Below are positions 4,570 to 23,698 of a stretch of DNA of 24,470 nt, piece by piece; position 1 is the first letter of the stretch, and the number at the start of each line of letters is the position of its first letter. The stretch comes from a virus (taxonomy: Duplodnaviria; Heunggongvirae; Uroviricota; Caudoviricetes). The notes under the pieces were generated by a model. It was not told where the DNA came from. It did not search any database and worked only from the letters and a program-made list of their open reading frames with translations. A program made the position numbers and the translations under genes. The stretch lies in IMG/VR virus record IMGVR_UViG_2909272501_000001. One strand, given 5' to 3'.

Positions 4570-5161
4570 GGGACACCCCCATCACCGGCAGACGGGCAGC
4601 AAGGGAGAGCACATAGTCACGGACAAGGGAACGGCGGGCACTGCGTTCATCACCGGCGACGGTGCGAAGCATGCAGATACGGGGATGACGGTCTGCGCGA
4701 CGGACAGCCGCAAACACAAAGACAAATTCAGGGTGTGAAGGGGTAAGGGTCGTAGCCATAAGGCAACCTCCGATAACAGCATAAATGACGCTATCGCCGG
4801 AGTTTCCACGCTCGATGGCGATAGCCCAGACGGGGGTGGAAATACCGGCGTTATCGGAAACCGGCCAGCCCGGAGGCTGCCCCGCCTGAGCTACCATTGA
4901 CTCTGCGGTATAATGAGCGGACGCGGGCAGAATGCACGGAGTGCCATTTGCTCGACTGACCACACACCACACCATAATCTGGCGCTCTGTGGCGTTGATT
5001 GCGACACAAAAAAAGACGCATGGCGCGTCATATGTCGCCGATAACATACTCGGGTTTCCACGCCCGGCTGCCGATTTTGCGGCAGCGGAAAAACTATATC
5101 CGCAAATGCCGGAAAAAGGCAAGCCAGAAAAAGGGAGTTTTTGCAGAGCGGGCATCATCAT
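4562..5161 (-). CDS. Uncertain ORF (199 aa from the internal Met; 214 aa on the track) covering the position where P4 carries its kil/eta/cI immunity region
   Basis: Open frame whose stop overlaps the next gene's start, but the translation is low-complexity and several other frames are also open in this GC-rich stretch. May be a misread of small genes and/or an RNA locus. Confidence 0.2.
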
Positions 5162-8155: not shown

Positions 8156-8896
8156 CTAGCGTTGCATTTCAGTTACTATGAAATTTTCTTCTGTAATAGA
8201 ATTCATTATCTCAAAGTACAATTCTTCAGGTTGAATAAACGCCAACTCTTTGCAAAGGTTGACAATGGTATCACTATAAGTGATACCCATCCGAGGATTG
8301 AAAAGCTCAAATCTCTTGATGTTTCTTTTGTTTTTTGAGTAAAAGTTTAAAGTGAAATATATTAGCACCTGTCTAAGATCGTAAACACTAAACTTCCTAT
8401 CTCCTGATTTTATTTCCACAAGAACATTTGAATAATAAATATCGCCATATGAATTATTTATTACTCCGCATCCATCGAATTGTGGAGACACTTCAATTTG
8501 GTTTTCCATTCCATATCGAGACAAAATGTTTCTTGCTATTTCCCTTATGGCATTGTACTCAACCATGCTTAAGGGTAGCTTGAAGTTAGAACCGTAAGCG
8601 AACCGCTGTAGATATTCTTTTGTTTTTTCAAAAACAACCTGAAAATCAGCATTATGGAAGATATCATGTGCTGAAAGAATATTTCTGTCTAACGAATCAT
8701 TCTGTATTGCCCTATATAAATTAAATGCGCACTCATTAACAAAGACGTTATTTGACCTATTAGCGCAGTCATCTAGAGGAGGATAAACGTCCTCGATGAG
8801 ACTGCCGTTAATGATGCGTATGAAATTATTAGCATTTGGAAGCAATTGATTCCAAAATGAAGTGAATTTTCGAGAAAACGTTAATTCAGATATCAT
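8156..8896 (-). CDS. Hypothetical 246-aa protein, partner of the reverse transcriptase; possible nuclease-like effector
   Basis: ATG overlaps the RT stop (ATGA at 8893-8896), with RBS GAGGA inside the RT 3' end. Very AT-rich. Segment GDIYYSNVLVEIKSG could be a D...ExK (PD-(D/E)xK-like) core, but this is unverified. Confidence 0.75.
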   Translation of the reverse strand: MISELTFSRKFTSFWNQLLPNANNFIRIINGSLIEDVYPPLDDCANRSNNVFVNECAFNLYRAIQNDSLDRNILSAHDIFHNADFQVVFEKTKEYLQRFAYGSNFKLPLSMVEYNAIREIARNILSRYGMENQIEVSPQFDGCGVINNSYGDIYYSNVLVEIKSGDRKFSVYDLRQVLIYFTLNFYSKNKRNIKRFELFNPRMGITYSDTIVNLCKELAFIQPEELYFEIMNSITEENFIVTEMQR

Positions 8897-10521
8897 AGCG
8901 CATCCTCAAGATTTCTTGCGGTATGCCTTTTACTTGCCCAATCCCTGTAAATCACCTCTACAAAGTTGAATGTTTTCTTATTATGCTCTCTCCAGTGCCG
9001 TCCTTCATCACCTAAGATGTAACTGGAAACGATCAATAGTCTTCTCTGCAACGGATGCATTGCAGAGAAATTTTTTTTGATATCAGAAAGCCATGCGTAA
9101 GAATTAATTTTTGCCATTGACTGTGTAACTATGTTCTTGACTAAGATGCTTTCTGGATTGTTATTGTATATTTCACTAAGGATTAGGGTGGATTTTTCTG
9201 AATTTTCTTTTGAGAGCATTCGGGCTACATAGGCTAAGTTGAGCTCAGTACTCAAAATATATGAATCTTGTTTAATTAGTGCAGTTATTTTATCAAGAAT
9301 AATATCTTTGGTTTCTGTGCTTAATTTTTGCCAGTTGGAGTTAGCTACTTGAATTATAGTTGTAAATATTGGATATAACTCATGCAAGTTATTAAACATT
9401 ACTTTGAAAGCACTACTTATTATTTCATCTGATGTTGCTGAGAATGCCTTTATCAAATGCTTGCTAAAAGATTGGTTAATTTTTGATTTTTGTAACTCAC
9501 TACTCAGCATAGCTAACAAGTCAAAATCTTTTAAAGATTCCTTTATCTCTTCATATTCCTCTATCGCATTTGCTGAGTAAGGATCGAATCTTATAGGAAG
9601 ACTCATAAATTTAGCCTTCATAGGAGATTCTTCATCTTCATCATTACCATGCAACTTAGCTTTAGTTACTGAAAGGAACTCTTCTTTAGTAACAATATTG
9701 GTTTTTTGTTTCTGTAAAGTTAGCCCTTCATTTTCCATCAGTTTTTTACTAAGCAAAGTTAAAATCTTATGAGCATCCTCTCTAGAGTTACAAAAAATAA
9801 CAAAGTCGTCGACATAACGCTTATAGTTGATTCTATTCATAGACAATAATTTATCAATAGAATCTAGAGCTAGTTCTGCTAATATTCTAGAGGCAGGACA
9901 TCCAACTGGTACTCCATATGATTTTGTTTCACTAAATGTCTGTAGTAATTTCTTGATTTTCCCAGAGTAATCTTTATTGGGGTCGACTCTATCTAACGCA
10001 TTTTCTAAACGGTGGTGATAAATACGCGGATAGAAATCTGCTATATCGCATGTAAGTACATACTTTATTTCATCGTTAGAACATTCAGAGATACTGTCTT
10101 CTTGATATTTTCTCCAAGAGATCTCTTTATCAAAAAGAGAACCATCAGCAAGGTTTGGTTTAAAGCGATATGAATAAACCTGCGTTTTAGTAGATCTATT
10201 CCTTTCAATATCATCAGCGATTTTTAAAACTAACCCAAGAAAAAAAGCATTCCAGAATGGATCAATTTGGGTCGCCCACCTGTAACCATAATAACCAATA
10301 CTTGAAAAGCTATTAATTATGTTTGGTGGAATCTCGATCCTTTTATTTTCAAAGTCATTAAATGTTTGCATTAATGCAGTTTTTACTTTCTCCTTATCAT
10401 CTTCAAATAACCGACTTTCAAATGGGTAAGGGAAAATATCTGTATCGCCGTGCTTTATAATATTTTCCAATGCAAGCTCAAAGCAATTTTCTAGTTTACT
10501 ACTATCAAACTCGTTACTCAT
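8893..10521 (-). CDS. Reverse transcriptase, 542 aa, with ~230-aa alpha-helical C-terminal extension; UG/Abi-like defence-associated RT candidate
   Basis: RT motifs in canonical order: LTCDIADFYPRIYHHRL (motif A-like), SYGVPVGCPASRILAELAL (motif B'-like), KRYVDDFVIF (YVDD catalytic motif C), NEGLTLQKQKTNIV (motif D/E-like). RBS AAGGAGA; start overlaps the int stop by 8 nt. No retron-type VTG motif seen. Confidence 0.85.
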   Translation of the reverse strand: MSNEFDSSKLENCFELALENIIKHGDTDIFPYPFESRLFEDDKEKVKTALMQTFNDFENKRIEIPPNIINSFSSIGYYGYRWATQIDPFWNAFFLGLVLKIADDIERNRSTKTQVYSYRFKPNLADGSLFDKEISWRKYQEDSISECSNDEIKYVLTCDIADFYPRIYHHRLENALDRVDPNKDYSGKIKKLLQTFSETKSYGVPVGCPASRILAELALDSIDKLLSMNRINYKRYVDDFVIFCNSREDAHKILTLLSKKLMENEGLTLQKQKTNIVTKEEFLSVTKAKLHGNDEDEESPMKAKFMSLPIRFDPYSANAIEEYEEIKESLKDFDLLAMLSSELQKSKINQSFSKHLIKAFSATSDEIISSAFKVMFNNLHELYPIFTTIIQVANSNWQKLSTETKDIILDKITALIKQDSYILSTELNLAYVARMLSKENSEKSTLILSEIYNNNPESILVKNIVTQSMAKINSYAWLSDIKKNFSAMHPLQRRLLIVSSYILGDEGRHWREHNKKTFNFVEVIYRDWASKRHTARNLEDAL

Positions 10522-11698
10522 TCACATTCTCCTTAATAAAAATATAATCTGAATACCACTGCATCATATCACGGCGTTTATCAATATATTGAGCATGATT
10601 ATACGTACCTCTAATATTATTCTTATCTATATGAGCAAGCTGTATTTCTATCCAAGCCGAATCATATCCTTTTTCGTGGAGGATAGTAGATAAGGAATGT
10701 CGAAATCCATGACCAGTAAGTTTTCCACCATAACCAATACGCTTGATAACTTGGTTAATACTCGCCTCACTCATAGGCTTGTTCGGATCGTTCCGCCCCG
10801 GAAAAACATAACTATACTTCCCTGTCATCATCTTGAGTTCATTTAGCAAATCTAACGCTTGAGTCGACAAAGGCACAAGGTGTGATCTGCGCATTTTCAT
10901 CCTTTCAGCAGGAATTTCCCAAATAGCGTTATCTAAATCAAATTCTGACCATAATGCCGCACGTAATTCGATGGTTCTAACACCTGTAATCATGAGCAAT
11001 TTCGTGGCAATCAGGACAAGCCGACTTCCGGTATATCCGTTTAAGGCGCGAAGAAAATCAGGTATCTCATTAGCCTTTAAGAACGGGAAATGATTTGATT
11101 GGTGTACATTGAGGGCGCTTGAAAGATCCGCAGCAGGGTTAAACTCAGCCCTTCCAGTAGCAATGGCATAGCGGAAAACTTCTGAGCATCGCTGCCGAAC
11201 TTTGCGCATTTTTTCTAATGCACCGCGCTTTTCGATTTTACGCAGCACATTAAGCAGTTCTAGCGGTTTAATCTCTCCCACTGGCCTTGTTCCCACATAA
11301 GGAAAAATGTCGTTCTTAAACGCTTCCATGATGTCTGATGCATATCCCGCCGACCATTTGGTAGACTTCTGTTGATGCCACTCTCTGGCTATCTTTTCGA
11401 AGGCGTTCTCTGACTCTGTTTGCAGAGCCAGCTTTTGCTCTTTTCGAACCTCACTAGGGTTCTTTCCTTCTGCCACAAGTTTTCGAGCTTCATCACGACG
11501 GGAACGAGCATCAGCAAGAGTGATCGTTGGGTAAACACCAAGCGAGATCATTTTGGGTTTACCGGCATAGCGATAACGAAATCGCCAGCTTTTACTTCCA
11601 TTTGGCTCTACAAGTAAAGACAACCCTTGCCCATCCCCAAGTGTATAGGCTTTAGCTTCAGGTTTAGCACGGCGAATCTGCATATCATTTAGGGGCAT
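10514..11698 (-). CDS. int: P4-type (DUF4102-family) tyrosine integrase
   Basis: 394 aa. N-terminal ...RRAKPEAKAYTLGDGQGLSLLVEPNGSKSWRFRYRYAGKPKMISLGVYP... is characteristic of P4/CP4-57-type integrases. Catalytic R...HxxR...H...Y residues (GVRTIEL, GHGFRHSLS, LAHIDKN..RGTYNHAQY). Confidence 0.88.
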   Translation of the reverse strand: MPLNDMQIRRAKPEAKAYTLGDGQGLSLLVEPNGSKSWRFRYRYAGKPKMISLGVYPTITLADARSRRDEARKLVAEGKNPSEVRKEQKLALQTESENAFEKIAREWHQQKSTKWSAGYASDIMEAFKNDIFPYVGTRPVGEIKPLELLNVLRKIEKRGALEKMRKVRQRCSEVFRYAIATGRAEFNPAADLSSALNVHQSNHFPFLKANEIPDFLRALNGYTGSRLVLIATKLLMITGVRTIELRAALWSEFDLDNAIWEIPAERMKMRRSHLVPLSTQALDLLNELKMMTGKYSYVFPGRNDPNKPMSEASINQVIKRIGYGGKLTGHGFRHSLSTILHEKGYDSAWIEIQLAHIDKNNIRGTYNHAQYIDKRRDMMQWYSDYIFIKENVNE

Positions 11699-11749
11699 GT
11701 GTATAGAATTCCAAAATCGAACAGGAACATATACATAATCCTATACACA
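11698..11749. repeat. Arm-type 9-mers near the int start: TGTGTATAG (11698-11706, inverted) and CTATACACA (11741-11749)
   Basis: Same 9-mer as at 613-633; the first copy overlaps the int start codon. Confidence 0.3.
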
Positions 11750-11861
11750 TTTAGTACTGGATTCTACTGGAAAGTTATGGACTAATACGAACAGTAAAAA
11801 CAAAAAATCTTTTATAAAACAGTGCGGTTATGGATAAATACGGATGTTTGAAGAAGTGGAG

Positions 11862-11881
11862 ATGGTGCCGATAATAGGAGT
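11862..11881. repeat. Right copy of the imperfect direct repeat; candidate att core shared by both elements
   Basis: ATGGTGCCGATAATAGGAGT, see 537-556. The first 9 nt (TGGTGCCGA) resemble the reverse complement of a tRNA 3' end, but no T-arm follows. Confidence 0.5.
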
Positions 11882-12023: not shown

Positions 12024-13301
12024 ATGAGATACAAGCCTAACCAATACTTAATCTGTGATTCTTACGGTAACTACTATTTAAGGATCACGCTGCCTGTGTA
12101 TATGCAGCCCTTTTTTGAAGGAAAAAGGACGTTTGTCAGAAGTCTACACACAAGTAATCTTCGTGTGGCACGTCGAAAGCGTGATCAGATTGCAGATGAA
12201 TACCATTGCTTACGGGAGAGTGTTGCCCCTGTAAACAGCACAATAGAAAACACGCTGGAACTGTTACGCAGTAAGGCTAAATACGCCAAAACAGCTACCA
12301 GAATGCAAGATACAGCGTCTTCGTGTCCGTCATTGCTTAAAATTCTTGAAATCTACCTGACAATTAACAGCACGAAGAAGAAGCCAGCCACTTTAGCTAA
12401 GGCAAGAAAAGCGGTAGAGATGTTTCTCTCCTACCGTAAAAAGCCTGATATTGCATTGCAAGATGTAAGCCGCACCACTGTTACAGGCTGGATTGAACAC
12501 ATGCAAAAAACCCTTTCACAACAATCAATTGCAAATTATATCAGCCCAATGGTCCAGCTATGGGAGTTAGCTTCATCACGTTACCACGATGCGCCAGAAA
12601 GGGCGCTCTCCCCCTGGCGAGGGCATAGGCTTGATGTGGCACAAAGTAGAGAGAGCTACGAGGCATTTTCTAACAAAGAGCTATTGCAGGTGTTGCAAGT
12701 ATTTTCCGGTGATTCAGCAGAAAACAAAGAAATGACGGCTTTGTGTCTTATCGGTTTATATACAGGTATGCGGATCAATGAGATAGCAAGTATCACAATA
12801 GACGATGTGAAAGAGATCGAAGGTGTGCTGTGTTTTGAAATCACACAGGGAAAAACGAAAGCTGCGGCACGTCTTGTGCCTGTGCATAACCTTATCACTC
12901 CGTTGGTGTTGTCGCTGCGTGAAAAGCCTCACAATGGCTTTTTGTTCTATCACGCCAGCATTACAGAACGTGCTGACGGTAAACGCTCTACGTGGCATAC
13001 ACAACGATTTACAAGAGCTAAACGAAAGGCTTTAGGGGAAAAGGGAACAGAAAGGAAAGTGTTTCATTCTCTGAGACACGGAGTAGCACAGCTTCTTGAT
13101 CGAAATCAAATTCCAGAAGACAGGATCGCCCTTCTCCTGGGCCATACACGCGGCAATACAGAAACATTCCGCACATATAGCAAGAATGCAGCTTCTCCAG
13201 TAGAGCTTAAAAAATATATTGAGCTTTTACGCTACCCTGAAATAGAGAAAGGCTTATCAATCAATAAAAAATCAAATTTAAGGCGTAAAACAACGCCATA
13301 G
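12024..13301 (+). CDS. Second tyrosine recombinase/integrase (425 aa from the ATG at 12024; track ORF begins at a TTG at 11937)
   Basis: Catalytic signature GMRINEI (R), FHSLRHGVAQ (HxxR), LLGHT (H), TYSKN (Y). RBS GGAG 5 nt before the ATG. AT-rich. Confidence 0.75.
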   Translation: MRYKPNQYLICDSYGNYYLRITLPVYMQPFFEGKRTFVRSLHTSNLRVARRKRDQIADEYHCLRESVAPVNSTIENTLELLRSKAKYAKTATRMQDTASSCPSLLKILEIYLTINSTKKKPATLAKARKAVEMFLSYRKKPDIALQDVSRTTVTGWIEHMQKTLSQQSIANYISPMVQLWELASSRYHDAPERALSPWRGHRLDVAQSRESYEAFSNKELLQVLQVFSGDSAENKEMTALCLIGLYTGMRINEIASITIDDVKEIEGVLCFEITQGKTKAAARLVPVHNLITPLVLSLREKPHNGFLFYHASITERADGKRSTWHTQRFTRAKRKALGEKGTERKVFHSLRHGVAQLLDRNQIPEDRIALLLGHTRGNTETFRTYSKNAASPVELKKYIELLRYPEIEKGLSINKKSNLRRKTTP

Positions 13302-13381
13302 ACGTAATAAAGAGGCTTCAATATAGATTGATGCCTCTTTTATGATTATCTCGTTACAGAGCGTTTCATAGGCGTTTAAGG

Positions 13382-14059
13382 CTATTGTTTAAATACTGGC
13401 GTTACAACGTCTTGCCCTGGGCTTTTTTGATTTTTCTGTTCTGTTGTATTTACCTGCATTTTAACCTGTCCCCCTACAGATTTATTTGGTGCTGTTTTTA
13501 CAGCAATAGCATTAGTGGTGGCCTTAGAGACAAGACGAATTTGCTCAAAATCAAGAGTAAACAATAAGCTTTCGCTTGCTTCTTCTTCGTAAGACATGCC
13601 AACTAACACAACGTTGTCATAATTTTTTAACTCAGTGACAAGTAGGAAAGGTTGGCGACTGTCCATCAACTGATTTAGGTATTCAAGCATAAGCATACGT
13701 CGATTGCCGTTAATTCCCGCATTCTTAATCATATCGGGATTGAGTTTCAATACGGTTTCAGAGATACGCCCCTGTAATGTGAACTTGTTATTCCGTATTT
13801 GAACATGATCACTAACTTCTGATCCTGATTCGACGGCATAGCTTGTAACGTCTGCATTTCGGCTAACTTTCGTCGATTCCACGTTATCAAATGATAATGC
13901 CCGGTAGTCATTGTAAGCAGCATTTGCACCACTGCCGAGGTTAGAGGTAATAATCGCAAAGCCGTTACCCCCTTTAGTTGTTCTACCGTTGCTATCGTTG
14001 CTTGTGCTGTTGATTTTCGCCTCAGTCGGGCGACCAATGGTTAACGGACCCATTGCCAT
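13382..14059 (-). CDS. Hypothetical protein, 225 aa (possible virion-associated protein)
   Basis: ORF with RBS AAGGA; last gene of a co-oriented leftward block that includes capsid-like candidates. No recognisable motif. Confidence 0.45.
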   Translation of the reverse strand: MAMGPLTIGRPTEAKINSTSNDSNGRTTKGGNGFAIITSNLGSGANAAYNDYRALSFDNVESTKVSRNADVTSYAVESGSEVSDHVQIRNNKFTLQGRISETVLKLNPDMIKNAGINGNRRMLMLEYLNQLMDSRQPFLLVTELKNYDNVVLVGMSYEEEASESLLFTLDFEQIRLVSKATTNAIAVKTAPNKSVGGQVKMQVNTTEQKNQKSPGQDVVTPVFKQ

Positions 14060-14106
14060 AATTTGTAATCCTTATTTAAGGGGGCTAAACAGCCCCACAG
14101 TGATGA

Positions 14107-15948
14107 TTAATAGGTTGACCCGCCTGACATAACACCCAGCGTTAATAGCTTGCTAAACTCAGCGGAGGATGCCTTTGATTTGAAGTCGATAAATTCGCTC
14201 AATCGTCCGGTGTCTGATTCGATAGTTAGCGGCACTTCTGCATTTACTTGTAATTCTGGATTGAAGTTAATAACAGGTGCAAAGGTGTAAGAAGGAGTCT
14301 TGATAGCTTGTTGTGCTGCACTCTGTTTCAGATTTGCAATGTTTTGTCCTTCGAGAGTGTATTGATTTACAGCCTGCGCCCCGCCTACCGTTTCTTCTGG
14401 CGTAAACCAGCCTTTAATAGTGTTAAACAGGGAATTGCTGTTATCTGGCTTAGTTGTTCCGGTGCCAGCGCCTTTATATTGATCAGGAACGAGATTAGAA
14501 AGATTCTGTTTCATCCCTTCGTTAGACAGTGGCGGTGCATCACCTAAATTCTTCTGAATAGCTTCCGTCTTCTCGTCGTTTTTCATCAGCCAGTTGATTG
14601 CTTTCATTACGGCGTTAACCAATCCGCCGATAGCCTCGCCTAATTTGGTAAACATTGGCAGCATTGCAACCATACTCTTTTTGAACTCTTCAATCACAGC
14701 AGGATCGAGAGATTTCATAAAGCCATCAACAAAGGCGATCCCTTGTGAGTCAGAAAGCCCACTAAGTGCATTATTCAGTTCACGGAATTTAATAACGCTT
14801 TCCTGTTGTGCCTGTGTTACCCAGCGCCCTGATTCTCGTTGTTCTCGTGCTGATTGTTCCACTTCTTTAGCGGAGCGTGTCCAGTATTTAGAGGTGAGCA
14901 TCAAATCATCAGCCAGATCTTCCAGACGACTACCGATTTGTGCATCTGAATAGCCTTTAGCTACCATTCCCTGAACTGCTTTACTAACCAGACCAGCCGG
15001 ATTATCAGCAAAGTCTTTTAGATCCTTTTTAGTTAGGAATCCTTCATTCATTAAAGTATTGATGCCGCTATCGCCGCCCTTCCATTCTCCTTTACCAGTT
15101 TTCTTATCAACTACATATTCAGCTTCATCATAAGATTTGGTTGCACGTTCACGCACATCTTTCATCTGATCCAGATACTTACGTTTACCTTGTTCGCCCA
15201 TCATTGAATCAACGCCGTTTTTATACGCCCATTGTTCAACATCGTTCATCTGGTTAACGTCTACACCGCCCAGCTTCGCACGGCTATACAATTCACCCAG
15301 CGTTTCAGCATTCGCAAAGCTGTTAGTAACAAATTCAGAGGCTTTGCTCATAGCCATATACGTAGCGCCAGCGCCTAAGCCACCCAGCATAACAGCCGCA
15401 GCACCGCCGCCAATACTCCCGCTACCCTTAACAGGTGCATAGGCTTTAGCGTGAGCGTTACGATTGCCATTAATCTTACGTTGTTGCTGTTGTAGGCGTT
15501 TCATTTGGCTATTCATACGTGCCAGACTAATAGCGCCTCTTTCATATTGGAGGGCAATTTCTCTAGCCTGTGCAATAGCTTTATATTGTTCCGCTACAGA
15601 AAGACGGTGCATTGCACTAATGCTTGATCCAACGTCTAAAAGCTTTAATTCTGCCTTCTCTTTGCGTGCTGCCAGGGCTTTTTGTTCTCTTGCAACTACA
15701 CGTTGAGCGGCTAATTGTGCTTTAGCATTGGCTTTATCTGCCTGTGCTTGCTTTTTAGCAATATCGTCTACGTCTTTTTTTGCTTTAGCGGTTGATTGTT
15801 TATGTGTCTTAACACGCAATTCTATATCTTTCACCGCCGCCATTTGTTTACGAAGTTTTTCTACTTCTGCTTTTGCTTTCTCTAATGATGGTCGATCAAC
15901 CTGGAAGGTGACAACGTTTGATAAGCGGCTGACGTTAAGTTCTAACAT
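14107..15948 (-). CDS. Large coiled-coil / Gly-rich protein, 613 aa; tape-measure-like or other minor virion structural protein candidate
   Basis: N-terminal ~170 aa is Lys/Ala/Gln-rich with heptad-like periodicity, followed by a Gly-rich hydrophobic segment (GSIGGGAAAVMLGGLGAGATYMAM) and then a globular region. RBS AGGGA. Confidence 0.55.
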   Translation of the reverse strand: MLELNVSRLSNVVTFQVDRPSLEKAKAEVEKLRKQMAAVKDIELRVKTHKQSTAKAKKDVDDIAKKQAQADKANAKAQLAAQRVVAREQKALAARKEKAELKLLDVGSSISAMHRLSVAEQYKAIAQAREIALQYERGAISLARMNSQMKRLQQQQRKINGNRNAHAKAYAPVKGSGSIGGGAAAVMLGGLGAGATYMAMSKASEFVTNSFANAETLGELYSRAKLGGVDVNQMNDVEQWAYKNGVDSMMGEQGKRKYLDQMKDVRERATKSYDEAEYVVDKKTGKGEWKGGDSGINTLMNEGFLTKKDLKDFADNPAGLVSKAVQGMVAKGYSDAQIGSRLEDLADDLMLTSKYWTRSAKEVEQSAREQRESGRWVTQAQQESVIKFRELNNALSGLSDSQGIAFVDGFMKSLDPAVIEEFKKSMVAMLPMFTKLGEAIGGLVNAVMKAINWLMKNDEKTEAIQKNLGDAPPLSNEGMKQNLSNLVPDQYKGAGTGTTKPDNSNSLFNTIKGWFTPEETVGGAQAVNQYTLEGQNIANLKQSAAQQAIKTPSYTFAPVINFNPELQVNAEVPLTIESDTGRLSEFIDFKSKASSAEFSKLLTLGVMSGGSTY

Positions 15949-15982
15949 GCTAATTGTTTCCCTGTATTATGATTGTTGTTTA

Positions 15983-16180
15983 TTATTGTTTTTTAGAGCA
16001 ATAGTATTGAATTGCTTCGAAAGTGCTGCATCCAGTCTGAAAGACACGCTGACGCACATTATTTGCATCAATTTCTAAAAGGCGGCAAAGCGCCGATGTG
16101 TTTATAACTGATTCCTCGCTAATAGCTGCCAGTTCTTTTACAGATTTAAGAATTAATGCCTGTGAATTTTCTGCGTTCAT
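15983..16180 (-). CDS. Small hypothetical protein, 65 aa
   Basis: ORF between the 343-aa and 613-aa genes; no motif recognised. Confidence 0.3.
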   Translation of the reverse strand: MNAENSQALILKSVKELAAISEESVINTSALCRLLEIDANNVRQRVFQTGCSTFEAIQYYCSKKQ

Positions 16181-16335
16181 TGGTTTTCTCTCACATATAT
16201 ATTTTTATTTGGGTTTGTAGACAGTAGAAAAAAAATAAGGGCAAGAGACAGCGCATATTTTGCTTATATGATTATCCCTTACCCTTATTGCCCCGATTAT
16301 TTCCAGACGATGGGGAATCGTCTATTAACGCTTTA

Positions 16336-17367
16336 TTACGCAGCAGATCCGAAGATGATAGCTTGCGGAATGTTGTTTACTGGCAGATAAGATGTCTCAG
16401 TAACCACAGATGGGAATTGGAATTCATCCTTGATTAGATATTGGTGATGTAACACGGCATCTTGACCTAACTCAGCATGACGCACACCAACGCCGCTATG
16501 AAGCTGATAGCACTGTGCCGCTTTATCCATTACTGGAACAATTGCGAAACCGTTCTCTCCGATGTGAGCAACAATCTCAGGAAACATTGACACATCAATA
16601 ACAGTGATCCCACCAATCTGGAAAGAGTCATAGGCTGGGTTAGAATCAACCATACGGGTAAACAGGGCCGTAGCACTCGCATCACCTGCATATTTCACCA
16701 TGTCACTGATCAGCGGGTTAGATGACAAACCATCAGCAGCAGCGCCAGCAGCAAAGATAATTACACCAGTTCGCTTTGCAGCAAGACCAGACCCCAGCTT
16801 TTCACTCTGTAAGCGCACCGCTTTACGAATAGCAAGGAACGGGTTAACAGTAGTCGATGCAAAGTCGATAGCGGGTACCGTGGTTTTAGCCTGACCGTCG
16901 AGGAAGTCGAGATCACCTTGTCCGGCATATTCAGATTCAACTTTCAGGCCCAGCAGCGCGGTAATCAGATCCACTTCAACACGGTTTGCGTGTGAACGGT
17001 AATGTGCCTCAGAGAAATCATTAACCGCTACCAGCATAGCATCAGAACGGTTTGGATATTGGCGGCTGTATTGTTCCAGGTCACGAGAAGTAACAGCGTT
17101 AATACTGCCGACGTGTTTCATCTGGAAAAGTTTGTTTGACCATTCCTGACGTTTAGAGGCGTTCCAGTCGCTTTGAGCGTAAGGCGAGGTTTCCCCAGCT
17201 ACCTGCACAAACTGATCAATCAGGTCGGTAAGAAGAATGCTGTTTTCTGTATGATATTGCACATCGAACAGATCGAGATTAGTAATCAGGGTATTAAGTG
17301 CATTCTCATAAGCAAATGGAGTTACTACCGCAGTATTAACGCCAAAATATGTTGATAAATCATTCAT
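16336..17367 (-). CDS. Hypothetical protein, 343 aa; major-capsid-like candidate (speculative)
   Basis: Size and position directly after a ~125-aa decoration-like gene resemble the lambda D/E arrangement. No direct sequence similarity to lambda gpE that I can confirm by eye. Confidence 0.5.
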   Translation of the reverse strand: MNDLSTYFGVNTAVVTPFAYENALNTLITNLDLFDVQYHTENSILLTDLIDQFVQVAGETSPYAQSDWNASKRQEWSNKLFQMKHVGSINAVTSRDLEQYSRQYPNRSDAMLVAVNDFSEAHYRSHANRVEVDLITALLGLKVESEYAGQGDLDFLDGQAKTTVPAIDFASTTVNPFLAIRKAVRLQSEKLGSGLAAKRTGVIIFAAGAAADGLSSNPLISDMVKYAGDASATALFTRMVDSNPAYDSFQIGGITVIDVSMFPEIVAHIGENGFAIVPVMDKAAQCYQLHSGVGVRHAELGQDAVLHHQYLIKDEFQFPSVVTETSYLPVNNIPQAIIFGSAA

Positions 17368-17381
17368 TATTATTTTCCTTG

Positions 17382-17765
17382 TTAAGTCGTAGGGATCGCA
17401 AGTTCTTCATAACCAGCAATTACAAAGCCGAGAGATTGCAGTTTTGCAATAACACTTGCCTTTTCCATACTGTTAAATTCAATCCCATCTTCAGCCAGAA
17501 TAACGAAAGTAGGATGTGCAACCACTACGCTTTCCTGTCCTTCATAAGCCGGTTCAACCACTACGTGAGCAATATCAGAAGCGGTTGTTGCTTTGGTGCC
17601 ATCGGCTTTCAGCAAAGCCCCGACAATAAGATCGTCAGTGAGAGGTGAAGCCAGTTTGACGAGGCGATCTTGCAGCACTGGATCAGCAGCGTAAGCTACT
17701 ACCTTACAGCGTGAACGGGAATTATCCGCATTCACTGCTTTTAATTTTCCATATGGGTTAGCCAT
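17382..17765 (-). CDS. Hypothetical protein, 127 aa; head-decoration-like candidate (speculative)
   Basis: Small Ala/Val-rich beta-type protein starting MANPYGKLKAVNADN..., immediately upstream of the 343-aa gene. Confidence 0.45.
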   Translation of the reverse strand: MANPYGKLKAVNADNSRSRCKVVAYAADPVLQDRLVKLASPLTDDLIVGALLKADGTKATTASDIAHVVVEPAYEGQESVVVAHPTFVILAEDGIEFNSMEKASVIAKLQSLGFVIAGYEELAIPTT

Positions 17766-17769
17766 AAGA

Positions 17770-17967
17770 TTATTTTCCTTTCAGTTGTTTAATTTTAGAT
17801 TTAAGGGCATCAGCAAGACTAACCGCATCAGCCGATTTAAATAATTGAGCAGTGGTAGAACGAAGACTTTCGGGAGTAACTCCCAACAGTGCGGCAACCT
17901 TAATGAGGTTTTCATCACTAACAATCATCGTTTCCCCGTCTTTGCTGATAATCATTTCTTGTTTCAT
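17770..17967 (-). CDS. Small hypothetical protein (65 aa from the ATG with RBS AGGAAC; track ORF extends to 18009)
   Basis: ORF with plausible RBS; first gene of the leftward structural-like block. Confidence 0.3.
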   Translation of the reverse strand: MKQEMIISKDGETMIVSDENLIKVAALLGVTPESLRSTTAQLFKSADAVSLADALKSKIKQLKGK

Positions 17968-18948
17968 AAATAACGTTCCTGTTAGTGCCAGACAAATAAA
18001 AAGCCCCAATGCCGTAAGAGGTTCTGACCAGCAAAGGGGCTTTAACGTGCGGGCAATTACATAATTGATAAGTTAAACTATAAGAGGATTAAACATATCA
18101 GCAAATACACTTTTTAAATATACTTGATGATATGCTTAAAGGGTGAATAGATACTCCTGAAAACATGCTCTTAAGAAAACATGCGGAATCAATCAGGAAT
18201 ATCTATTCGGGGCGCGGTGGCTAACCGCTATCTTTCATGGTGTGGATGCACCAGTCAGATTTTAAGGAATCACTATTCCAATCTACTCACAGATTAAATT
18301 TTTAATAAGGATTAACTACACCAACAGTAATCTACCGTTTCAGAAAATCGTTTCACAACCAAAGATTATAGATCCGCATTCTATAAAACCCGTTTTGCTA
18401 TCAATATTTCCAAAGTTTATTGCACCATTCTTAGCTAAACTCTCTCTACTTGCGGCTAACGCTATGCAGATGATAGTTTTTTGACAACAACTTAATAGAT
18501 TATTCTGTTACTAACTTCCGTCATTAAATAAGAGTTTAATGATGTTAGTAAATAGTTATAAAATATAACTATCAGTGTAAGGCTCTTTAATGTTTTCGGA
18601 CAAAATAAGGAGCTTTAGGATAAGCATAGATGAAAAATAAGAGCGGGAAGGGCAAGGAGATAACACCTACCCGCTTTTATCAAAAATTAAGCACAATGCC
18701 TAACAACATTCATCAACACAACGTAGAAACAATCAACAATCAAAGAGGGAGTTATGATTATTCTAAAACTTCTTGATAGATGGAAGGTAATATTTGTTAG
18801 AGGTTAATGCCACTCAACCTTTGAGGCTATCACCTTCCATATGCAGGGATTTATGACAGTAGAAGGATTAACACCAACTAAAATCTTTTAATCTACCCCT
18901 AAAATTATTATATAACAAAATCATCATAAATGCAAATGATTTTCATTA

Positions 18949-19251
18949 TCATTTAGAGAAAATAGCACTTTTTGCTAAATCATTTACTAATTGCTGAATC
19001 TCTTCACTTGCAGCCTTTAACGTGCTGGCGGTGTCTGTGATGGTTTGAGTGCACATCTTGGCATCTGATAGCTCTAAATCGCTCACCAGAGAGACAAAAT
19101 CTTCTAAGCATACATTGAGCTTCATTAAGCTAATAACGCATTGAGAGAGCGTATAATCGCATAAATCTGAATAGGCTTGATTTATTCTTGTTTGTAGTGA
19201 GATAGTCAGATCTAAAAGTTGTTCCATTGCATTGCTAATATCTTCTTCCAT
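18949..19251 (-). CDS. Hypothetical acidic helical protein, 100 aa
   Basis: ORF; start ATG overlaps the stop of the upstream 81-aa gene. Confidence 0.4.
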   Translation of the reverse strand: MEEDISNAMEQLLDLTISLQTRINQAYSDLCDYTLSQCVISLMKLNVCLEDFVSLVSDLELSDAKMCTQTITDTASTLKAASEEIQQLVNDLAKSAIFSK

Positions 19252-19496
19252 TATGCGTATTCTCCTTGTAATGCATCATTAATCATATTCAATACGATGT
19301 TAAAAGGTGTCTTGAGCGTCAGCACTTCATCACGGTAACGTTCTAATGCTTCGTAGTCTTCTGTTTCTTTTGCCAGCCGGATTAACTCAGCATAGTTTTT
19401 TGCATCAGACAGGAGCATCTGAAATAATTGTGTTTCTTGAATATAGCCAATCATTATTTTTCCTTTTTCGAATATTTTCATTGGGCGCTTATACAT
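19251..19496 (-). CDS. Hypothetical protein, 81 aa
   Basis: ORF in the co-oriented operon downstream of the rep-like gene. Confidence 0.4.
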   Translation of the reverse strand: MYKRPMKIFEKGKIMIGYIQETQLFQMLLSDAKNYAELIRLAKETEDYEALERYRDEVLTLKTPFNIVLNMINDALQGEYA

Positions 19497-19511
19497 ACGC
19501 CCGTCTTTCTA

Positions 19512-19892
19512 TTAGTTAGAACGTTTGTTAGATGCGAGAGTGTCGATCAGGTGCTGCATCAGATCTGTTTCTGTAACGCCGCCTACCTGATTGTTGAACG
19601 AATTGAAGCCTGTATAGTGACGAAATGAGGTAAAGCCTAACAATTGCCATTTCTTCAATGTGCCAGGTTCTATAATCGTTGTCTTTCTTGTTCTGGGTTT
19701 GAAATACACACCATCACCCATTGATTGAATAATTTCTAATTCTTCGTTTGTAAGTGGTGGGCTGTTAGATTCTAAAATGAAGACTATCTCTTCACCTGCT
19801 TCTTCATTATTCTTATAAACTTGCTTTCTTACGTCGTTGAAGGTGTTCCCTTGCTCAATACGTTTTAAGTTGTTCTTTTTCTTTCTTCCCAT
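19512..19892 (-). CDS. Hypothetical protein, 126 aa, basic N-terminus
   Basis: ORF with RBS GAGGGA; N-terminal MGRKKKNNLKR. Confidence 0.45.
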   Translation of the reverse strand: MGRKKKNNLKRIEQGNTFNDVRKQVYKNNEEAGEEIVFILESNSPPLTNEELEIIQSMGDGVYFKPRTRKTTIIEPGTLKKWQLLGFTSFRHYTGFNSFNNQVGGVTETDLMQHLIDTLASNKRSN

Positions 19893-20026
19893 TTTCCCTC
19901 TTTTTATGTGGATTATAAAAACTGAATGCCATAGTTACGATGAATATTGCTACAAATGCACTTGCCATATGTATTGCCCGATCTGTTGTTACTGATTGTT
20001 TGTGATGTTATAAATCATTTATTTCC

Positions 20027-20596
20027 TTAAAAGGGTAGTGAATCATATATTGTGCTCTCACTTTTGAGATCAATTATCAAAGAGTCAAAATCATTTTCAC
20101 AAAGATAGATATTCTTTGAATCTAATGCTCGTTTTACAAAATCTTCTGTTTCTTCGTGCGGTGGTTTCTTCTTATCAAGGGAAAGAAGCCAAGTAAAAAT
20201 TTCGGGCCGCTCAGGGAACTCTGGCTCTTGTGTTTCTTCTTCAACGATGATTTCGGAAACATTCAATATTTCATTAGATTCGTCTTCTTTCTCAGAAGGA
20301 TCAGGTAGTGATGATTCTCCTTTTGGAATATCAAGCACTCGATAAAGGTTAGAGCTTCCTGGTCGTGCATCTTTTATAATTAATCCCATTTCGAGCAATT
20401 TCTTAACCCTTTCTTCTGCTGCTCTTGGTGTTATGCCAAAAACATCGCCTATCTTAGCGTAAGAGGGAAATGCACGATCAAACCCTCTCAGATAGCAGTA
20501 AAGGTTTTTAGCACTATCTGTAAATTTATGCCCGTTTACTTGGCTTATTTTTAGAATCCACATAGGAACTTTTACAAATTGTTCTTCATTAATCAT
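20027..20596 (-). CDS. Winged-helix DNA-binding protein, 189 aa from the ATG at 20596; replication initiator / replisome-organiser-like candidate
   Basis: RBS AAGGAGA 5 nt before the ATG. Segment NLYCYLRGFDRAFPSYAKIGDVFGITPRAAEERVKKLLEMGLIIK resembles wHTH initiator N-domains. Acidic C-terminal half. Same operon as an RHH protein and downstream of the iteron cluster. Confidence 0.5.
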   Translation of the reverse strand: MINEEQFVKVPMWILKISQVNGHKFTDSAKNLYCYLRGFDRAFPSYAKIGDVFGITPRAAEERVKKLLEMGLIIKDARPGSSNLYRVLDIPKGESSLPDPSEKEDESNEILNVSEIIVEEETQEPEFPERPEIFTWLLSLDKKKPPHEETEDFVKRALDSKNIYLCENDFDSLIIDLKSESTIYDSLPF

Positions 20597-20649
20597 TAAA
20601 AATCTCCTTGATGTAATCACGCTCTACGGCGCTACTATGGTGATAAAAA

Positions 20650-20820
20650 TCACTTGCTTTTGTTTGAGAGTGTTTCAGCCTCTCTTTTCAACATATCAAG
20701 AATGTAATCTGTAACAGTGATACGTTTACTTCTGGCTTCTTTAAACAACACCTGAAATACTTCATCAGGAATATGAAAGCAAGTGCGTGGTTGCCTTTTC
20801 TTTTCTGTAGTTTCGCTCAT
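20650..20820 (-). CDS. Ribbon-helix-helix (CopG/Arc-like) DNA-binding protein, 56 aa from the internal ATG
   Basis: Strong RBS AAGGAGA before the ATG at 20820. Sequence KRQPRTCFHIPDEVFQVLFKEARSKRITVTDYILDMLK fits the RHH beta-strand-helix-helix pattern. Confidence 0.55.
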   Translation of the reverse strand: MSETTEKKRQPRTCFHIPDEVFQVLFKEARSKRITVTDYILDMLKREAETLSNKSK

Positions 20821-20839
20821 AGTTTTCTCCTTCTCTTCT

Positions 20840-21040
20840 TTACTCTGTTTCAGATTCTTTTTCAGATCCTTTTTCATTTTTTCTTAATTCATCAATAATT
20901 TTTAGTGCATCGTCAAAGCATTTTTCACGCTCTGGATAACCACAGCGTCGCGCTGTGTTCCTGTTCATCCTTACTTTAAAACGGTTGATCTCACCACGTT
21001 TCCAGGCTTCCACAATATCCTGTGGAGTGAAATATTTCAT
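20840..21040 (-). CDS. Hypothetical small protein, 66 aa
   Basis: Strong RBS AGGAGG before the ATG at 21040; first gene of the leftward operon below the iteron region. Confidence 0.45.
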   Translation of the reverse strand: MKYFTPQDIVEAWKRGEINRFKVRMNRNTARRCGYPEREKCFDDALKIIDELRKNEKGSEKESETE

Positions 21041-21883
21041 TAATTAACCTCCTATTCTATTTAGTTAAAAGAAATAGACACCTTGCAAGCCTTGGGCTTC
21101 AAAGTGCGATGCATTGGTTTAATTATTTAAAGGATAAGAATGTTTTCCTGCCCCTAATATTACTTTACCACGACTAAAGGCTTTTGTCAACCCCCCAGCC
21201 ATAAAAATATTGATCATTTTCAGTGTGTTATGATTTTTCTTAGCAATTCGTGCTCTTACGAATACTCCAATTCTTCATTATTGTCTAAAACGCTCTAAAA
21301 CGCGTTCTAACGAGGTTTTGATAAAAACAATACATTCCCTTATGTAATGGCTGTTTAGCTCGCCTACGGTTTGATTTAAGCGGTAGAAACTCATCTACTA
21401 CCTAACATCTTTAAACCATATTTTTCTTTTTTGTCTGTTTGATGGTTGATCTATAGTTATGCGTTAGCATCCCCAAAGGGGTAACGCTACCCTAATTGCA
21501 TTCGCAAGAACATTGCACAAGAAATTTATTTTAGATGATTGATGATCGTTAGATGGTAGTTAGTTAATTATCGTTCTGCGCACAGCGCAAGACTATTTAG
21601 CCTTACGCAAGCCGTAGGCTATTTGCACATAGTAGATTACATATTCGTTGTGAGCGGAAAGCGAACATAGATCTACTAACTAACATTAACAAACAAAAAC
21701 TATGTGTTATGAGAAGTATCAGTCTAACTGACTAACACTCTAACTTGTGCAAGGTTCTGGCGAATGCCAATAGATTAAGGGATAGTCGAAGACTCCCTAA
21801 CGGGTATCCCTATAATTATTCTTTAAAGATAAAAGAATTTATAAAAGATAATTTAATTGTAGTTTGATAGTTGATCTAATAGG

Positions 21884-22021
21884 TAACAAAATTCTGTAGG
21901 GGTGGCTAACAGTTTTCTGTGGGGGTGTCTAACATAATTCTGTTAGGGTTGGGGTAACAGTTTTCTGTTAGGGTGCATATTTCTTTAAAAGTTAAGGATA
22001 ACAGAATTCTGTGGGGGTAGC
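21884..22021. repeat. Iteron cluster: five ~23-bp direct repeats, consensus TAACA(n)3TTCTGT(n)GGGGT
   Basis: Copies begin at 21884, 21907, 21930, 21955 (tandem, 23-25 bp spacing) and 21999 (after an AT-rich spacer), upstream of the operon containing the RHH and wHTH genes. Confidence 0.6.
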
Positions 22022-22854
22022 TCACAGTGACCTACCGTTACATCCATCACATAACATCTGTGCAATGATCTTCTTATAATCAGTAAAAGTCTTTCTTGCT
22101 ATCAAAAATTAAACATCTAAAACAAGCTTAAATTCAAGATTAATTGATGATTAATCCCTGTGTAATTCCATACTAAAAAATCCAAGAAAAATGGCTTCAA
22201 AATGCAATTCTTACTTTCTTCACTTTTGCGTCATCATCAGCAAAGCCTTATGTTATGCGGCATATAGCGCATCACTGCAAAATTGTTGCTCAATAAACGT
22301 TCTATCATTTGTTGAACAAGTTCTTTCACGTGTTGAAAATTTATGTTTAAATTTGCTTTCAATCTTTAATGTGCAATCACTATCAACATAAAAATAAAAA
22401 ATCTTCTATTATATTTCATAGCATACAAAAGTCAATAGAAGCCCTCTCGTGCTCCTACGTAAAAAATCCACCATTTTTCCCCTGATACATCAACTCAAGG
22501 CGTTCTATGTGTTCCTTAGTGCATATTACGATTATTATGTTAAATGTATTTTGGCCTATATTTTGACCTGCACCCGCATAAACACTGGTTTCATCGCTTA
22601 CAGCCCTTGTGAGACGTGGTGCTGTTTCTAGCATCTGATCCGACATAAAACCGATCATTCTCGTGTTTAGTGAAAGTTTAGTGAGAGACATTACAGAAAG
22701 GCTTTCTGTGTAATGATTTAATAGGTAAAAACGATGTTGATTACGCAAGAAAATTCCTTGCTGATATTTGGGGATTCTGGATTTTCCAGATCGGGGGGCG
22801 CTGAAAATCGCGTTAAGCACCTCTCGCAATCTAGCCATAAGGGAGGGGATTCAT

Positions 22855-22929
22855 ATGTATTTAGATGTATTTATAGCTATTTATGGCTATTTATTTTTTA
22901 TTTACCTTTATTTGAAAACAACCTTATAA
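22855..22929 (+). CDS. Candidate 24-aa hydrophobic peptide MYLDVFIAIYGYLFFIYLYLKTTL
   Basis: ATG 5 nt after a strong SD (AAGGGAGGGG). Very short, so a coding call is tentative. Confidence 0.25.
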   Translation: MYLDVFIAIYGYLFFIYLYLKTTL

Positions 22930-23146
22930 ATCAATAAGATACAGAACAACCTGTTTATATTTTAATCACTTAAATTACGTTTAATACCCTTAAATCACCT
23001 GAAAATAACCTTAAATACCCCAATAATTAATTTTAACGATTCCTGTGCTCTCTTCTACATTGCAAAAAGGCAAAAAAAGCCCATAGAGGCACAAAAATAT
23101 TAAAACCAATAACTCAATAATGCCTCTACAAGAGCTTCTCTAACTG

Positions 23147-23698
23147 TTATTTTTGATTGAGCTTACATCGATCCCATTGTTCTGTCGTTCTTGTGATACG
23201 ATCGCTTATTGCAAAATTTAATAGCCAAGAATCATAAGCATAAACCTTGCTTTTATCATCTGCCATCATAAACTTGCCGTTAGCATTCAGTTTTGGCGAT
23301 ATCAAATATGTTCCATTTAATCTGTTAGCCTTGAAGCTATCTGCATATAAAGTTACTTGTGCGTATCCCTGAACACGTAATGCCCCTAAACGTCCGTTTT
23401 CGATTGATGCAATAGAGTATTGGCAAAGATAATTTTTGGCAGCAGGAGTCGTTTTCACTCCTTCAGTTTTTCGTGAATTATTTGATTGCGAGCTTCGAAT
23501 AGAGGATGAAGGATAAGAGTATGAATGATTTTTATAAGATGAAGGGGCATAAGAGCCAATCCGGCACGTCTTACCAACAGCTATACACGAGTTACCACAA
23601 GGTATTCCTTTTTTGCAGTTTTTAGCAACTGCGGTAGAAGTTCCCCCTACAAACAACGTTGTAAAAATCATCATCCTCACAAATGCAGACCTGCGCAT
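23147..23698 (-). CDS. Secreted Cys-rich protein, 183 aa
   Basis: N-terminal signal-peptide-like segment (MRRSAFVRMMIFTTLFVGGTSTAVA), then a 4-Cys cluster (CKKGIPCGNSCIAVGKTC), a Ser/Tyr-rich linker and a C-terminal domain. Confidence 0.55.
   Translation of the reverse strand: MRRSAFVRMMIFTTLFVGGTSTAVAKNCKKGIPCGNSCIAVGKTCRIGSYAPSSYKNHSYSYPSSSIRSSQSNNSRKTEGVKTTPAAKNYLCQYSIASIENGRLGALRVQGYAQVTLYADSFKANRLNGTYLISPKLNANGKFMMADDKSKVYAYDSWLLNFAISDRITRTTEQWDRCKLNQK

Follow-up and report, generated by a model that had tools for sequence, protein, structure and literature searches.

A predicted promoter, structured leader RNA and terminator cassette in the long gap before the capsid genes of a satellite-like island of Escherichia coli

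The window analysed here, that is, the whole stretch of 24,470 nucleotides (nt) of IMG/VR virus record IMGVR_UViG_2909272501_000001 (Caudoviricetes), corresponds to a segment of the Escherichia coli chromosome at the thrW (tRNA-Thr, beside proA) integration hotspot; over positions 12554-22876 it does not differ from strain ECCRA-119. The 3' end of tRNA-Thr is duplicated, as a 21-nt copy, at 11861-11881, just ahead of the gene for a tyrosine integrase (DUF6538 + Phage_integrase), and the tRNA-Thr itself is located ~600 nt past the right end of the window: together, they delimit an AT-rich integrative island of 13.2 kb, where all genes other than the integrase are on the minus strand. The object of the analysis is a long intergenic gap of this island. 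The gap is preceded, on the transcribed strand, by genes for an O-like helix-turn-helix (HTH) initiator (20027-20620) and a set of small early proteins, and is followed by a late operon of capsid- and tail-like genes; a conserved cassette, composed of a promoter, a structured leader and a terminator, is predicted within it.

The gap spans positions 17968-18948 of the window (981 nt, 34% GC). In the identical RefSeq sequence it is bounded by a 65 amino acid (aa) gene, starting at 17967, and by a 100-aa gene, ending at 18949, with nothing annotated between them; zero features are annotated also in the ~270 complete E. coli genomes carrying the gap at full length (~960-1005 nt, 87.6-100% identity). 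The initial annotation, made from the sequence alone, had described the region as a long AT-rich stretch of about 0.9 kb, without open reading frames (ORFs) of 60 aa or more, unusual in a tightly packed element. The description is correct in its facts: the mechanical ORF list contains no ORF of at least 60 aa within 18065-18948, and 18010-18064 is entered by just two: the 65-aa gene in its TTG-extended form (17770-18009) and, antisense to that gene, a plus-strand ORF of 70 aa (17852-18064). Since 59% of the dinucleotide shuffles of the gap are equally devoid of ORFs of this size, the absence of ORFs matches the random expectation at the same composition, as for plain non-coding sequence. The gap is unusual rather for its size: the remaining spacers of the element range from -1 to 155 nt, with just two outliers, of 981 and 2106 nt. 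The tightly packed element is a satellite-like island of 13 kb and not an ordinary phage. Gap copies are found at a median of one place per genome (three at most), all within the same element family, and a dispersed intergenic repeat of the REP, ERIC or MITE kind was ruled out by this copy number. A copy of the region, at 96.5% identity, is also present outside the chromosome, at 36487-38094 of NZ_CP126938.1, a 166 kb conjugative E. coli plasmid.

The features predicted in and around the gap are reported in Table 1. At the 5' edge, 13 nt past the stop codon of the last early gene, a sigma-70 promoter is predicted, which is the best promoter-like match in 17600-19400 (10/12) and is kept in most E. 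coli-type alleles; two alleles, L004 (a -35 variant) and L009, were missed at the threshold of the promoter scan and were read from the alignment. The family was scanned over 48 unique upstream regions extracted from loci: in nearly every full upstream region, a promoter scoring 10-12.5 of 12 precedes the first capsid-block ATG by 412-1000 nt. Lineages other than the E. coli type typically feature TTGACA or TTGACT, a 17-18-nt spacer and a TAnnnT -10 box, scoring up to 12/12 and located 412-775 nt before that ATG. The palindrome abutting the promoter is kept in all E. coli-type alleles, L009 included, and may represent an operator. A -10-like TAGATT may also be read in the sequence, ~6-11 nt past the predicted transcription start site (TSS).

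Table 1. Predicted features of the gap and of the downstream operon, in order of transcription
Feature	Position	Strand	Description
Palindrome	18934-18954	-	AAATGAT-N7-ATCATTT, read from sequence; shares positions with the stop codon (18951-18949) of the 100-aa ORF upstream and extends into the -35 box
Leader promoter	18907-18936	-	-35 TTTGCA (18936-18931), 18-nt spacer, -10 TATAAT (18912-18907); predicted TSS near 18900
Predicted non-coding leader transcript	17994-18900	-	~0.9 kb; chain of long hairpins rich in CU (anti-Shine-Dalgarno-like) motifs
Repeat motif, copy 1	18863-18886	-	~25 nt, AGAUUUUAGUUGGUGUUAAUCCUU; 5' end of leader; direct repeats D1/D3; kept in L009 and L010
Hairpin with 13-nt arms	18780-18840	-	AUGGAAGGUGAUA / UAUUACCUUCCAU, apical AACCUCUAAC; inverted repeat I8; in minimum free energy (MFE) and centroid folds
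T1, internal terminator-like hairpin	18633-18680	-	AAAAGCGGG...CCCGC, then UCUUAUUUUU; ~265 nt past predicted TSS
Repeat motif, copy 2	18307-18333	-	AGAUUACUGUUGGUGUAGUUAAUCCUU; direct repeats D1/D3; ~555 nt from copy 1
HP-A, long bulged hairpin	18139-18251	-	outer arms 18208-18193 and 18160-18145; predicted by unguided RNAalifold
Helix 2, small hairpin	18214-18228	-	GCGGU-UAGCC-ACCGC; compensated to GCGAU/AUCGC in L010
HP-B, second long hairpin	18089-18139	-	24-nt arms, 79% complementary; inverted repeat I1
T2, two-tier intrinsic terminator	17994-18043	-	stem AAAGCCCC/GGGGCUUU, inner stem GCUG/CGGC, loop GAACCUCUUAC, tail UUUUUAUUU
Ribosome-binding site (RBS) region and start of first capsid-block gene	17965-17985	-	Shine-Dalgarno (SD) AGGAA (17980-17976), ATG 17967-17965
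T3, intrinsic terminator directly 3' of capsid gene	16226-16289	-	AAUAAGGGUAAG...CUUGCCCUUAUU, then U8; 12-bp stem with one G-U pair
Late operon	13382-17967	-	65-aa, 127-aa, gpE-like capsid, second 65-aa, tape-measure-like and Dit-like proteins; Pfam/PHROG matches, conserved synteny

At the opposite edge, the stem AAAGCCCC...GGGGCTTT, which had been noticed beforehand together with its minus-strand T-run, proved to be real: it coincides with T2 (18043-17994), folds at -30.7 kcal/mol (z = -3.0), and ends ~27 nt before the first capsid-block ATG. In other alleles T2 is compensated, both in the inner stem (GCUA/UAGC) and in the outer one (AAUCCCCC/GGGGGAUU). Nearly every full upstream region contains a terminator with GC stem and U-run, 32-110 nt upstream of the capsid-block ATG; it was called by the scan in all scanned lineages except L009, for which it was read by eye from the alignment. 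No promoter-like site is found between T2 and the first capsid-block ATG. Within the leader, T1 folds at -17.9 kcal/mol (z = -4.3), and its L004 allele at -21.6 kcal/mol (z = -6.9); stable hairpins, having different stem sequences, occupy T1-like positions in L009, L010 and the Klebsiella type. No terminator is found between the early operon and the leader, so early transcripts would also run into T1 and T2. T3, which the promoter/terminator scanner missed because its loop is longer than 8 nt, is present in seven of the seven lineages examined: it is scan-called in the window, L009 and L011 and, more weakly, in L013, and was read by eye in L002, L010 and L014. As T3 is placed between the capsid gene and the tape-measure and Dit genes, the tail genes also lie behind a terminator.

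The layout of promoter, leader and terminator holds for at least six leader lineages devoid of mutual blastn similarity, with a leader length of 0.4-1 kb. In all of those tested, the leader is predicted to be heavily folded: the one in the window has an MFE of -259 kcal/mol (z = -7.95) and the leaders of seven other lineages range from z = -6.4 to -11.6, whereas coding segments taken from these elements stay between +1.1 and -1.8. Inside the leaders, modules differ from lineage to lineage and are exchanged freely; the hairpin at 18780-18840 is missing from L009, and the Klebsiella-type leader features an internal 44-nt indel. For the ~25-nt repeat motif, no complementary third element is present among the inverted repeats listed for the gap.

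Conservation of base pairing was evaluated for the E. coli type on nine distinct sequences, by using RNAalifold unguided. Of the 15 pairs contributed by HP-A, 10 have both sides changed and still pair; 100% of its cells are paired, and none of 500 shuffles reaches the observed values. Most alleles have (A)CCUCCUAAGAGC as its apical loop, where the window has UUUUCUUAAGAGC. HP-B also features compensated pairs, as in CAUCAAG/UUUGCUG vs CUCUAAG/CUUAGAG (RNAalifold on A4). Over the whole E. coli-type structure, 98.5% of the cells are paired, and 12 pairs show double changes, against 7.5 +/- 1.5 in shuffles (0/500 reaching the observed number), a control which ignores phylogeny; when the pairing partners are slid, paired cells drop to 29-51%, a contrast inflated by the derivation of the structures from the same alignments tested. 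A covariance model of HP-A matches only the window, L009 and L010, with no extension beyond E. coli-type leaders. Similar results are obtained for an independent lineage, found in Enterobacter and Cronobacter: of 99 predicted pairs, 26 show double changes (13.9 +/- 2.3 in shuffles, 0/500), and 93% of the cells are paired, vs 43-50% when slid. Significant compensatory covariation is thus seen in two lineages. Kissing of the HP-A and T2 loops (UAAGAG and CUCUUA, respectively) was also considered, and was dropped as it is not kept in L010.

The strand on which the structure is formed is indicated by G-U pairs, which number 15 when the sequence is read as minus-strand RNA and 1 when it is read as the plus strand: this asymmetry places the structure on the minus-strand RNA, and excludes a palindrome of double-stranded DNA. 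It bears directly on the possibility that the hairpins are DNA-level sites, such as a cos or pac packaging region, or protein-binding palindromes, preceding the first head-region gene. The position is reminiscent of lambda cos/cosB, upstream of Nu1; a packaging signal must exist somewhere in the element, where none has been located; the first late protein (65 aa) contains an HTH-like stretch, LIKVAALLGVTPESL; and a palindrome abuts the promoter. Yet, besides the G-U asymmetry, which palindromes of double-stranded DNA do not explain, stems are seen to vary freely while loops are conserved, the opposite of what duplex recognition predicts. Nor is there any lambda-cos-like sequence beyond chance: the only match to the cosN-like GGGCGGCGACCT in the window, with two mismatches, is outside the gap, at 17889, and 60 of 100 shuffles contain as much. 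Phage DNA similar to the gap was not found either: no match was obtained by comparing the gap (megablast, blastn), and the leader of another lineage (blastn), to 50,697 phage records. DNA-level sites are therefore an improbable explanation for the hairpins as a whole; a small DNA site could be embedded within the leader.

The same conservation argues against the gap being a decayed gene, one of the three alternatives of the initial annotation, or an AT-rich spacer without function, left at a junction where modules have recombined. The family is indeed strongly mosaic, with 99%-identical modules flanked by allelic replacements, and a module junction falls inside the gap, at ~18100-18400; as reported above, the ORF content of the gap equals that of random sequence. 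But a gap of 0.4-1 kb is retained in every lineage, even where flanking proteins are down to 19-50% identity, the positions of promoter and terminator are conserved, and compensatory changes in two lineages indicate selection on RNA base pairs. Extreme folding z-scores are restricted to the leaders. Moreover, alleles have no ORF remnants in common: no conserved ORF, on either strand, is found in the diverged alleles L009 and L010, where the peptide similarity of the best ORFs (0.29-0.51) is noise, and frameshifts in four close alleles disrupt a 48-aa ORF of the plus strand. This explanation is considered very unlikely. The other two alternatives, a regulatory RNA and a promoter hub, both gain support, the former from the covariation-backed structure on the minus strand, the latter from the positionally conserved sigma-70 promoter, on the same strand as the terminator T2. 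The region is predicted to be transcribed from the minus strand, with ends near 18900 and 17994.

The sequence of the leader is also biased. On the transcript strand, 19 CU-rich, anti-SD-like pentamers are found, against 7.4 +/- 3.2 in shuffles (only one in 1000 reaches this number), and just 2 SD-like pentamers; the same bias is observed in 9 of 10 other leaders tested. Several motifs of the UUAAUCCUCUUA form are located in apical loops or directly after hairpins, and the HP-A loop of most alleles, (A)CCUCCUAAG, is close to the 16S rRNA 3' end. The SD of the first late gene is itself included in a small predicted hairpin (UAAC-AGGAAC-GUUA); this SD is paired by RNAalifold, in two lineages, to a 5' segment rich in CU, with partial compensation, a predicted pairing which is suggestive only. 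Because of the CU-rich bias of the minus strand, the plus strand looks rich in SD sites. Short RBS-preceded ORFs, such as the one starting from the ATG at 18754 after AGAGGGA, had been noted in the gap: that ORF does exist, as a plus-strand ORF of 17 aa, but a frameshift interrupts it in L006, and in L009 its spacing from the SD is not a usable one. Such ORFs lie on the wrong strand, and the SD-like strings preceding them are the complement of the CU-rich motifs; for annotation purposes, plus-strand SD-like signals and small ORFs of this region are to be regarded as artefacts of a CU-rich minus-strand RNA.

No curated family includes the leader RNA. Rfam 15, with its riboswitches and ribozymes, run at gathering threshold over the whole window, gives matches only at 4814-5099, and none in the gap; in a permissive scan of 17900-19050, the best E-value is ~1, with scores far below gathering, and a scan of nine loci from other lineages returned only a tRNA. 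In the gap, there is no match to the models for C4 antisense RNA (RF01695) and c4-a1b1, no tRNA or tmRNA, and no TGT-N12-ACA site for activators of the P2/P4 Ogr/Delta type. Neither tandem repeats nor iterons are present in 17900-19000, where TRF reports only a trivial 7-nt repeat in 2.3 copies, and no direct-repeat family is found in the gap. Similarity of the gap to unrelated plasmid DNA was not detected, and a collection of one genome per species contains no relatives.

Taken together, these data make it rather probable that the gap is a control region, gating the late (capsid-tail) operon of a satellite-like element by means of terminators located in the leader. Transcription would start at the sigma-70 promoter, directly after the last early gene; the polymerase would then cross ~0.9 kb of untranslated, hairpin-dense RNA, and meet the terminator-like T1 and then the strong T2, where transcripts from the leader promoter and from the early operon would both stop. 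Because the first late gene lacks a promoter of its own and is preceded by T2, late genes would be expressed only upon read-through of T2; tail genes would need read-through of T3 as well. Read-through may be triggered by an antitermination factor, provided by the element or by a helper phage: candidate effectors are helper-encoded factors and the early proteins of the element. The conserved structure and the CU-rich motifs probably add a control of translation or RNA stability. If confirmed, the cassette would provide a defined, testable switch, by which a satellite times the production of capsids to the cycle of its helper, and would add a new family of large structured RNAs in very well-studied bacteria.

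A number of observations weigh against this interpretation. Promoter-like matches are not enriched in the region overall (3 found vs 6 expected), and the case for the promoter rests on its positional conservation. No antiterminator of the Q, N or other families was found among the element ORFs tested (Pfam, PHROGs, NCBIfam), and the AlphaFold model of the early protein regarded as a possible effector, described below, is unusable, with a predicted local distance difference test (pLDDT) score of 46. HP-A exists in four stem versions, hence few independent allele replacements lie behind its covariation, and the inflated contrast with slid structures, mentioned above, is to be counted here too. 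Terminators following capsid genes can serve plain stoichiometric attenuation, without any antiterminator. Finally, a simple terminator gate requires much less than the 0.4-1 kb of the leader, and gating would account for only part of its function. Its length, modularity and CU motifs exceed what a gate requires and make a further role plausible, as a trans-acting RNA, in SD sequestration, in RNase III processing, or as the host of an embedded packaging site.

The first of these roles may be turned into an explanation of its own, in which the gap encodes one or more free-standing trans-acting RNAs, either ~265 nt long, from the promoter to T1, or extending for the whole 0.9 kb to T2, and dedicated to immunity, helper interference or SD sequestration, in the manner of the P4 CI RNA, gating being secondary. 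From a near-consensus promoter followed by terminators, discrete and abundant RNAs would be expected also while the element is integrated; the structure greatly exceeds the needs of a gate, and anti-SD-like motifs are strongly enriched, several of them in apical loops. No complementarity to a target was identified, however, and neither a C4/CI-like fold nor an Rfam family is recognized; lineage-specific, freely exchanged modules would be unusual for an RNA having a fixed target in trans, and the invariant features, namely promoter, terminator and position before the late operon, all act in cis. A primarily trans-acting RNA is thus unlikely, and is in any case compatible with gating in cis. A bolder proposal, put forward only tentatively and more doubtful than not, is that the leaders form an unclassified class of large (0.4-1 kb), modular, hairpin-dense RNAs, specific to capsid/tail-carrying satellites of Enterobacteriaceae, where the RNA itself would sense or relay infection by the helper phage. 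It could do so by switching antitermination or processing at the RNA level, or by serving as an anti-SD decoy with multiple sites, directed at the late mRNAs of the element or at those of the helper, and would thus be more than a passive leader bearing terminators.

The gating arrangement finds its closest counterpart in the late control of phage lambda, which is based on the PR' promoter, the 6S RNA (194 nt), the tR' terminator and the Q antiterminator. In both, a sigma-70 promoter directly follows the last early or regulatory gene, and a non-coding transcript runs to an intrinsic terminator placed just before promoterless late genes; further terminators are found inside the late operon, and the capsid protein is distantly lambda-gpE-like. 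The leader described here is, in contrast, hairpin-dense and longer (0.4-1 kb) than the 6S RNA, no Q-family gene is found in the element, and there is no sequence similarity to any phage. Of the parts making up a lambda-type cassette, the promoter and the terminator before the late genes are present and an adjacent Q-family gene is not found among the ORFs tested; as to a Q-binding element (QBE) and a sigma-dependent, promoter-proximal pause site, the sequence offers just the -10-like TAGATT mentioned above. The element is not a member of that group. A Q protein encoded by the helper is a possible source of antitermination.

A looser likeness is found with the immunity leader of satellite P4, where the PLE transcript carries the CI RNA (C4 antisense family, RF01695), which pairs with seqA and seqC and controls the replication operon. 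In both, a satellite has a constitutive promoter from which a structured leader, not translated, would be made, and downstream genes would be kept off by its premature termination; here, however, the leader precedes capsid genes instead of a replication operon and no C4-like fold occurs in the gap, so the leader does not belong to the P4 immunity system. The put RNAs of phage HK022 are cis-acting antiterminator RNAs of ~70 nt, made of two defined stem-loops. The leader, likewise a promoter-proximal structured RNA, could act in cis for terminator read-through as they do, and a put-like cis RNA would explain the absence of an antiterminator protein. The leader, however, is modular and 5-14 times longer; besides, an antiterminator independent of proteins would result in constitutive late expression, unless the promoter were repressed.

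Two further systems share single traits with the cassette. GOLLD and ROOL are highly structured non-coding RNAs of 0.5-0.8 kb, associated with prophages and of unknown function; they are likewise large structured RNAs on prophage-like elements, but feature a conserved, ornate multi-junction fold, while the leader is a string of long simple hairpins, arranged in lineage-specific modules and matching nothing in Rfam, and is found in Enterobacteriaceae at a fixed position before capsid genes. In type III toxin-antitoxin systems (ToxIN), a promoter is followed by an RNA of ~36-nt tandem repeats, a leaky terminator and an endoribonuclease gene. The order of promoter, non-coding RNA, terminator and protein gene is the same, but the gap contains no tandem repeat array, and the genes located downstream encode capsid and tail proteins, not an endoribonuclease.

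The element carrying the gap is one of a family, whose members resemble phage satellites: they are 12-13 kb long, are located at tRNA genes, and encode their own capsid, tape-measure and Dit homologues, with no terminase or portal. In the window, the capsid-like gene is found at 16336-17367 (343 aa) and is preceded by the genes for two small proteins; its homologues carry PF03864, the lambda gpE capsid family. The tape-measure-like and Dit-like proteins match phrog_16051 (3e-33) and PF21821 (2e-27), respectively. Terminase, portal and tail-tube genes are absent from every family member. In E. coli, elements with this gene order are found both at tRNA-Thr and at tRNA-Gly; others are found in contigs with capsid homologues labelled Citrobacter, Klebsiella, Cronobacter, Pluralibacter and Enterobacter, as well as in gut and other metagenomes. 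About 5% of complete E. coli genomes, O104:H4 included, are carriers. Capsid identity across the family falls as low as 19-50%, and two capsid alleles, only 19-20% identical, are swapped between otherwise near-identical elements. A tblastn comparison of the capsid protein with 50,697 phage genomes gives nothing at E <= 1e-3, and no capsid relatives are present in the one-genome-per-species collection. Gene content and synteny are consistent with a maintained satellite-like island, rather than a decaying prophage. No published description of the element family or of its leader was found in the searchable literature, and this family of small islands is apparently undescribed. A satellite-encoded homologue of a phage major capsid protein is known from SaPIbov5, a Gram-positive phage-inducible chromosomal island (PICI), as the Ccm protein (PMC8569155). 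The two are similar as small islands having a capsid homologue and lacking terminase, portal and most tail genes; they differ in family and regulation, and the element described here adds tape-measure-like and Dit-like proteins, its capsid having no phage homologue detectable by tblastn.

Among the early proteins, one of 126 aa (19512-19892, minus strand) is the only member of the early operon conserved in all lineages. Its N-terminus, MGRKKKNNLKRIEQ, is basic, an FKPRxRK motif is conserved in it, and there is no Pfam, NCBIfam or PHROG match. Its possible role as the effector of read-through is to be taken as a lead, not as a finding. An acidic protein of ~100 aa is always encoded just upstream of the leader promoter; homology among the acidic proteins of different lineages is not detectable (hhalign probability 1.9%).

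A second unannotated gap of the island, at 21041-23146, contains five ~20-nt iterons, TAACAnnnTTCTGTnGGGGT, at 21884-22018, spaced by 23, 23, 25 and 44 nt. Located near the gene for the O-like initiator, this array is very likely the replication origin of the element. The gap before the capsid genes, being AT-rich and ~1 kb from the same initiator gene, might have been proposed for that role; but it is devoid of iterons and tandem repeats, whereas a five-iteron array lies in the other gap, and the probability of its being the origin is negligible. The second gap also contains strong promoter-like sites on the minus strand, at 22435-22408 and 21190-21162, and is partly conserved in other family members (79-86% identity).

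Next to it, a minus-strand ORF of 183 aa (23147-23698) begins with a signal-peptide-like segment, MRRSAFVRMMIFTTLFVGGTSTAVA. In other copies of the element the same position is occupied by a serine recombinase, also of 183 aa, and in the Klebsiella, Cronobacter and Enterobacter copies by a tyrosine recombinase of ~190 aa: the differing genes point to a slot for variable cargo or recombinases. The hypothesis that the ORF is the inverted recombinase of an invertible switch was ruled out, as it encodes an unrelated signal-peptide protein which replaces the recombinase.

The Rfam matches at 4814-5099, on the minus strand, are all at gathering level and consist of a C4 antisense RNA (4814-4901), isrK (5009-5086) and a c4-a1b1 target (5047-5099). 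This GC-rich segment (55-62%) belongs to a different island, and looks like an RNA immunity region of the P4/P1 type. A separate island, at 8156-11881, is arranged in tandem at the same tRNA hotspot, and contains the genes for a tyrosine integrase (10514-11698) and an RNA-directed DNA polymerase of 542 aa (8893-10521), besides an ORF of 246 aa. The integrase of this island is adjoined, in L001, by another copy of the tRNA-Thr 3' end; in ECCRA-119, a second, different reverse-transcriptase gene is found at the corresponding place.

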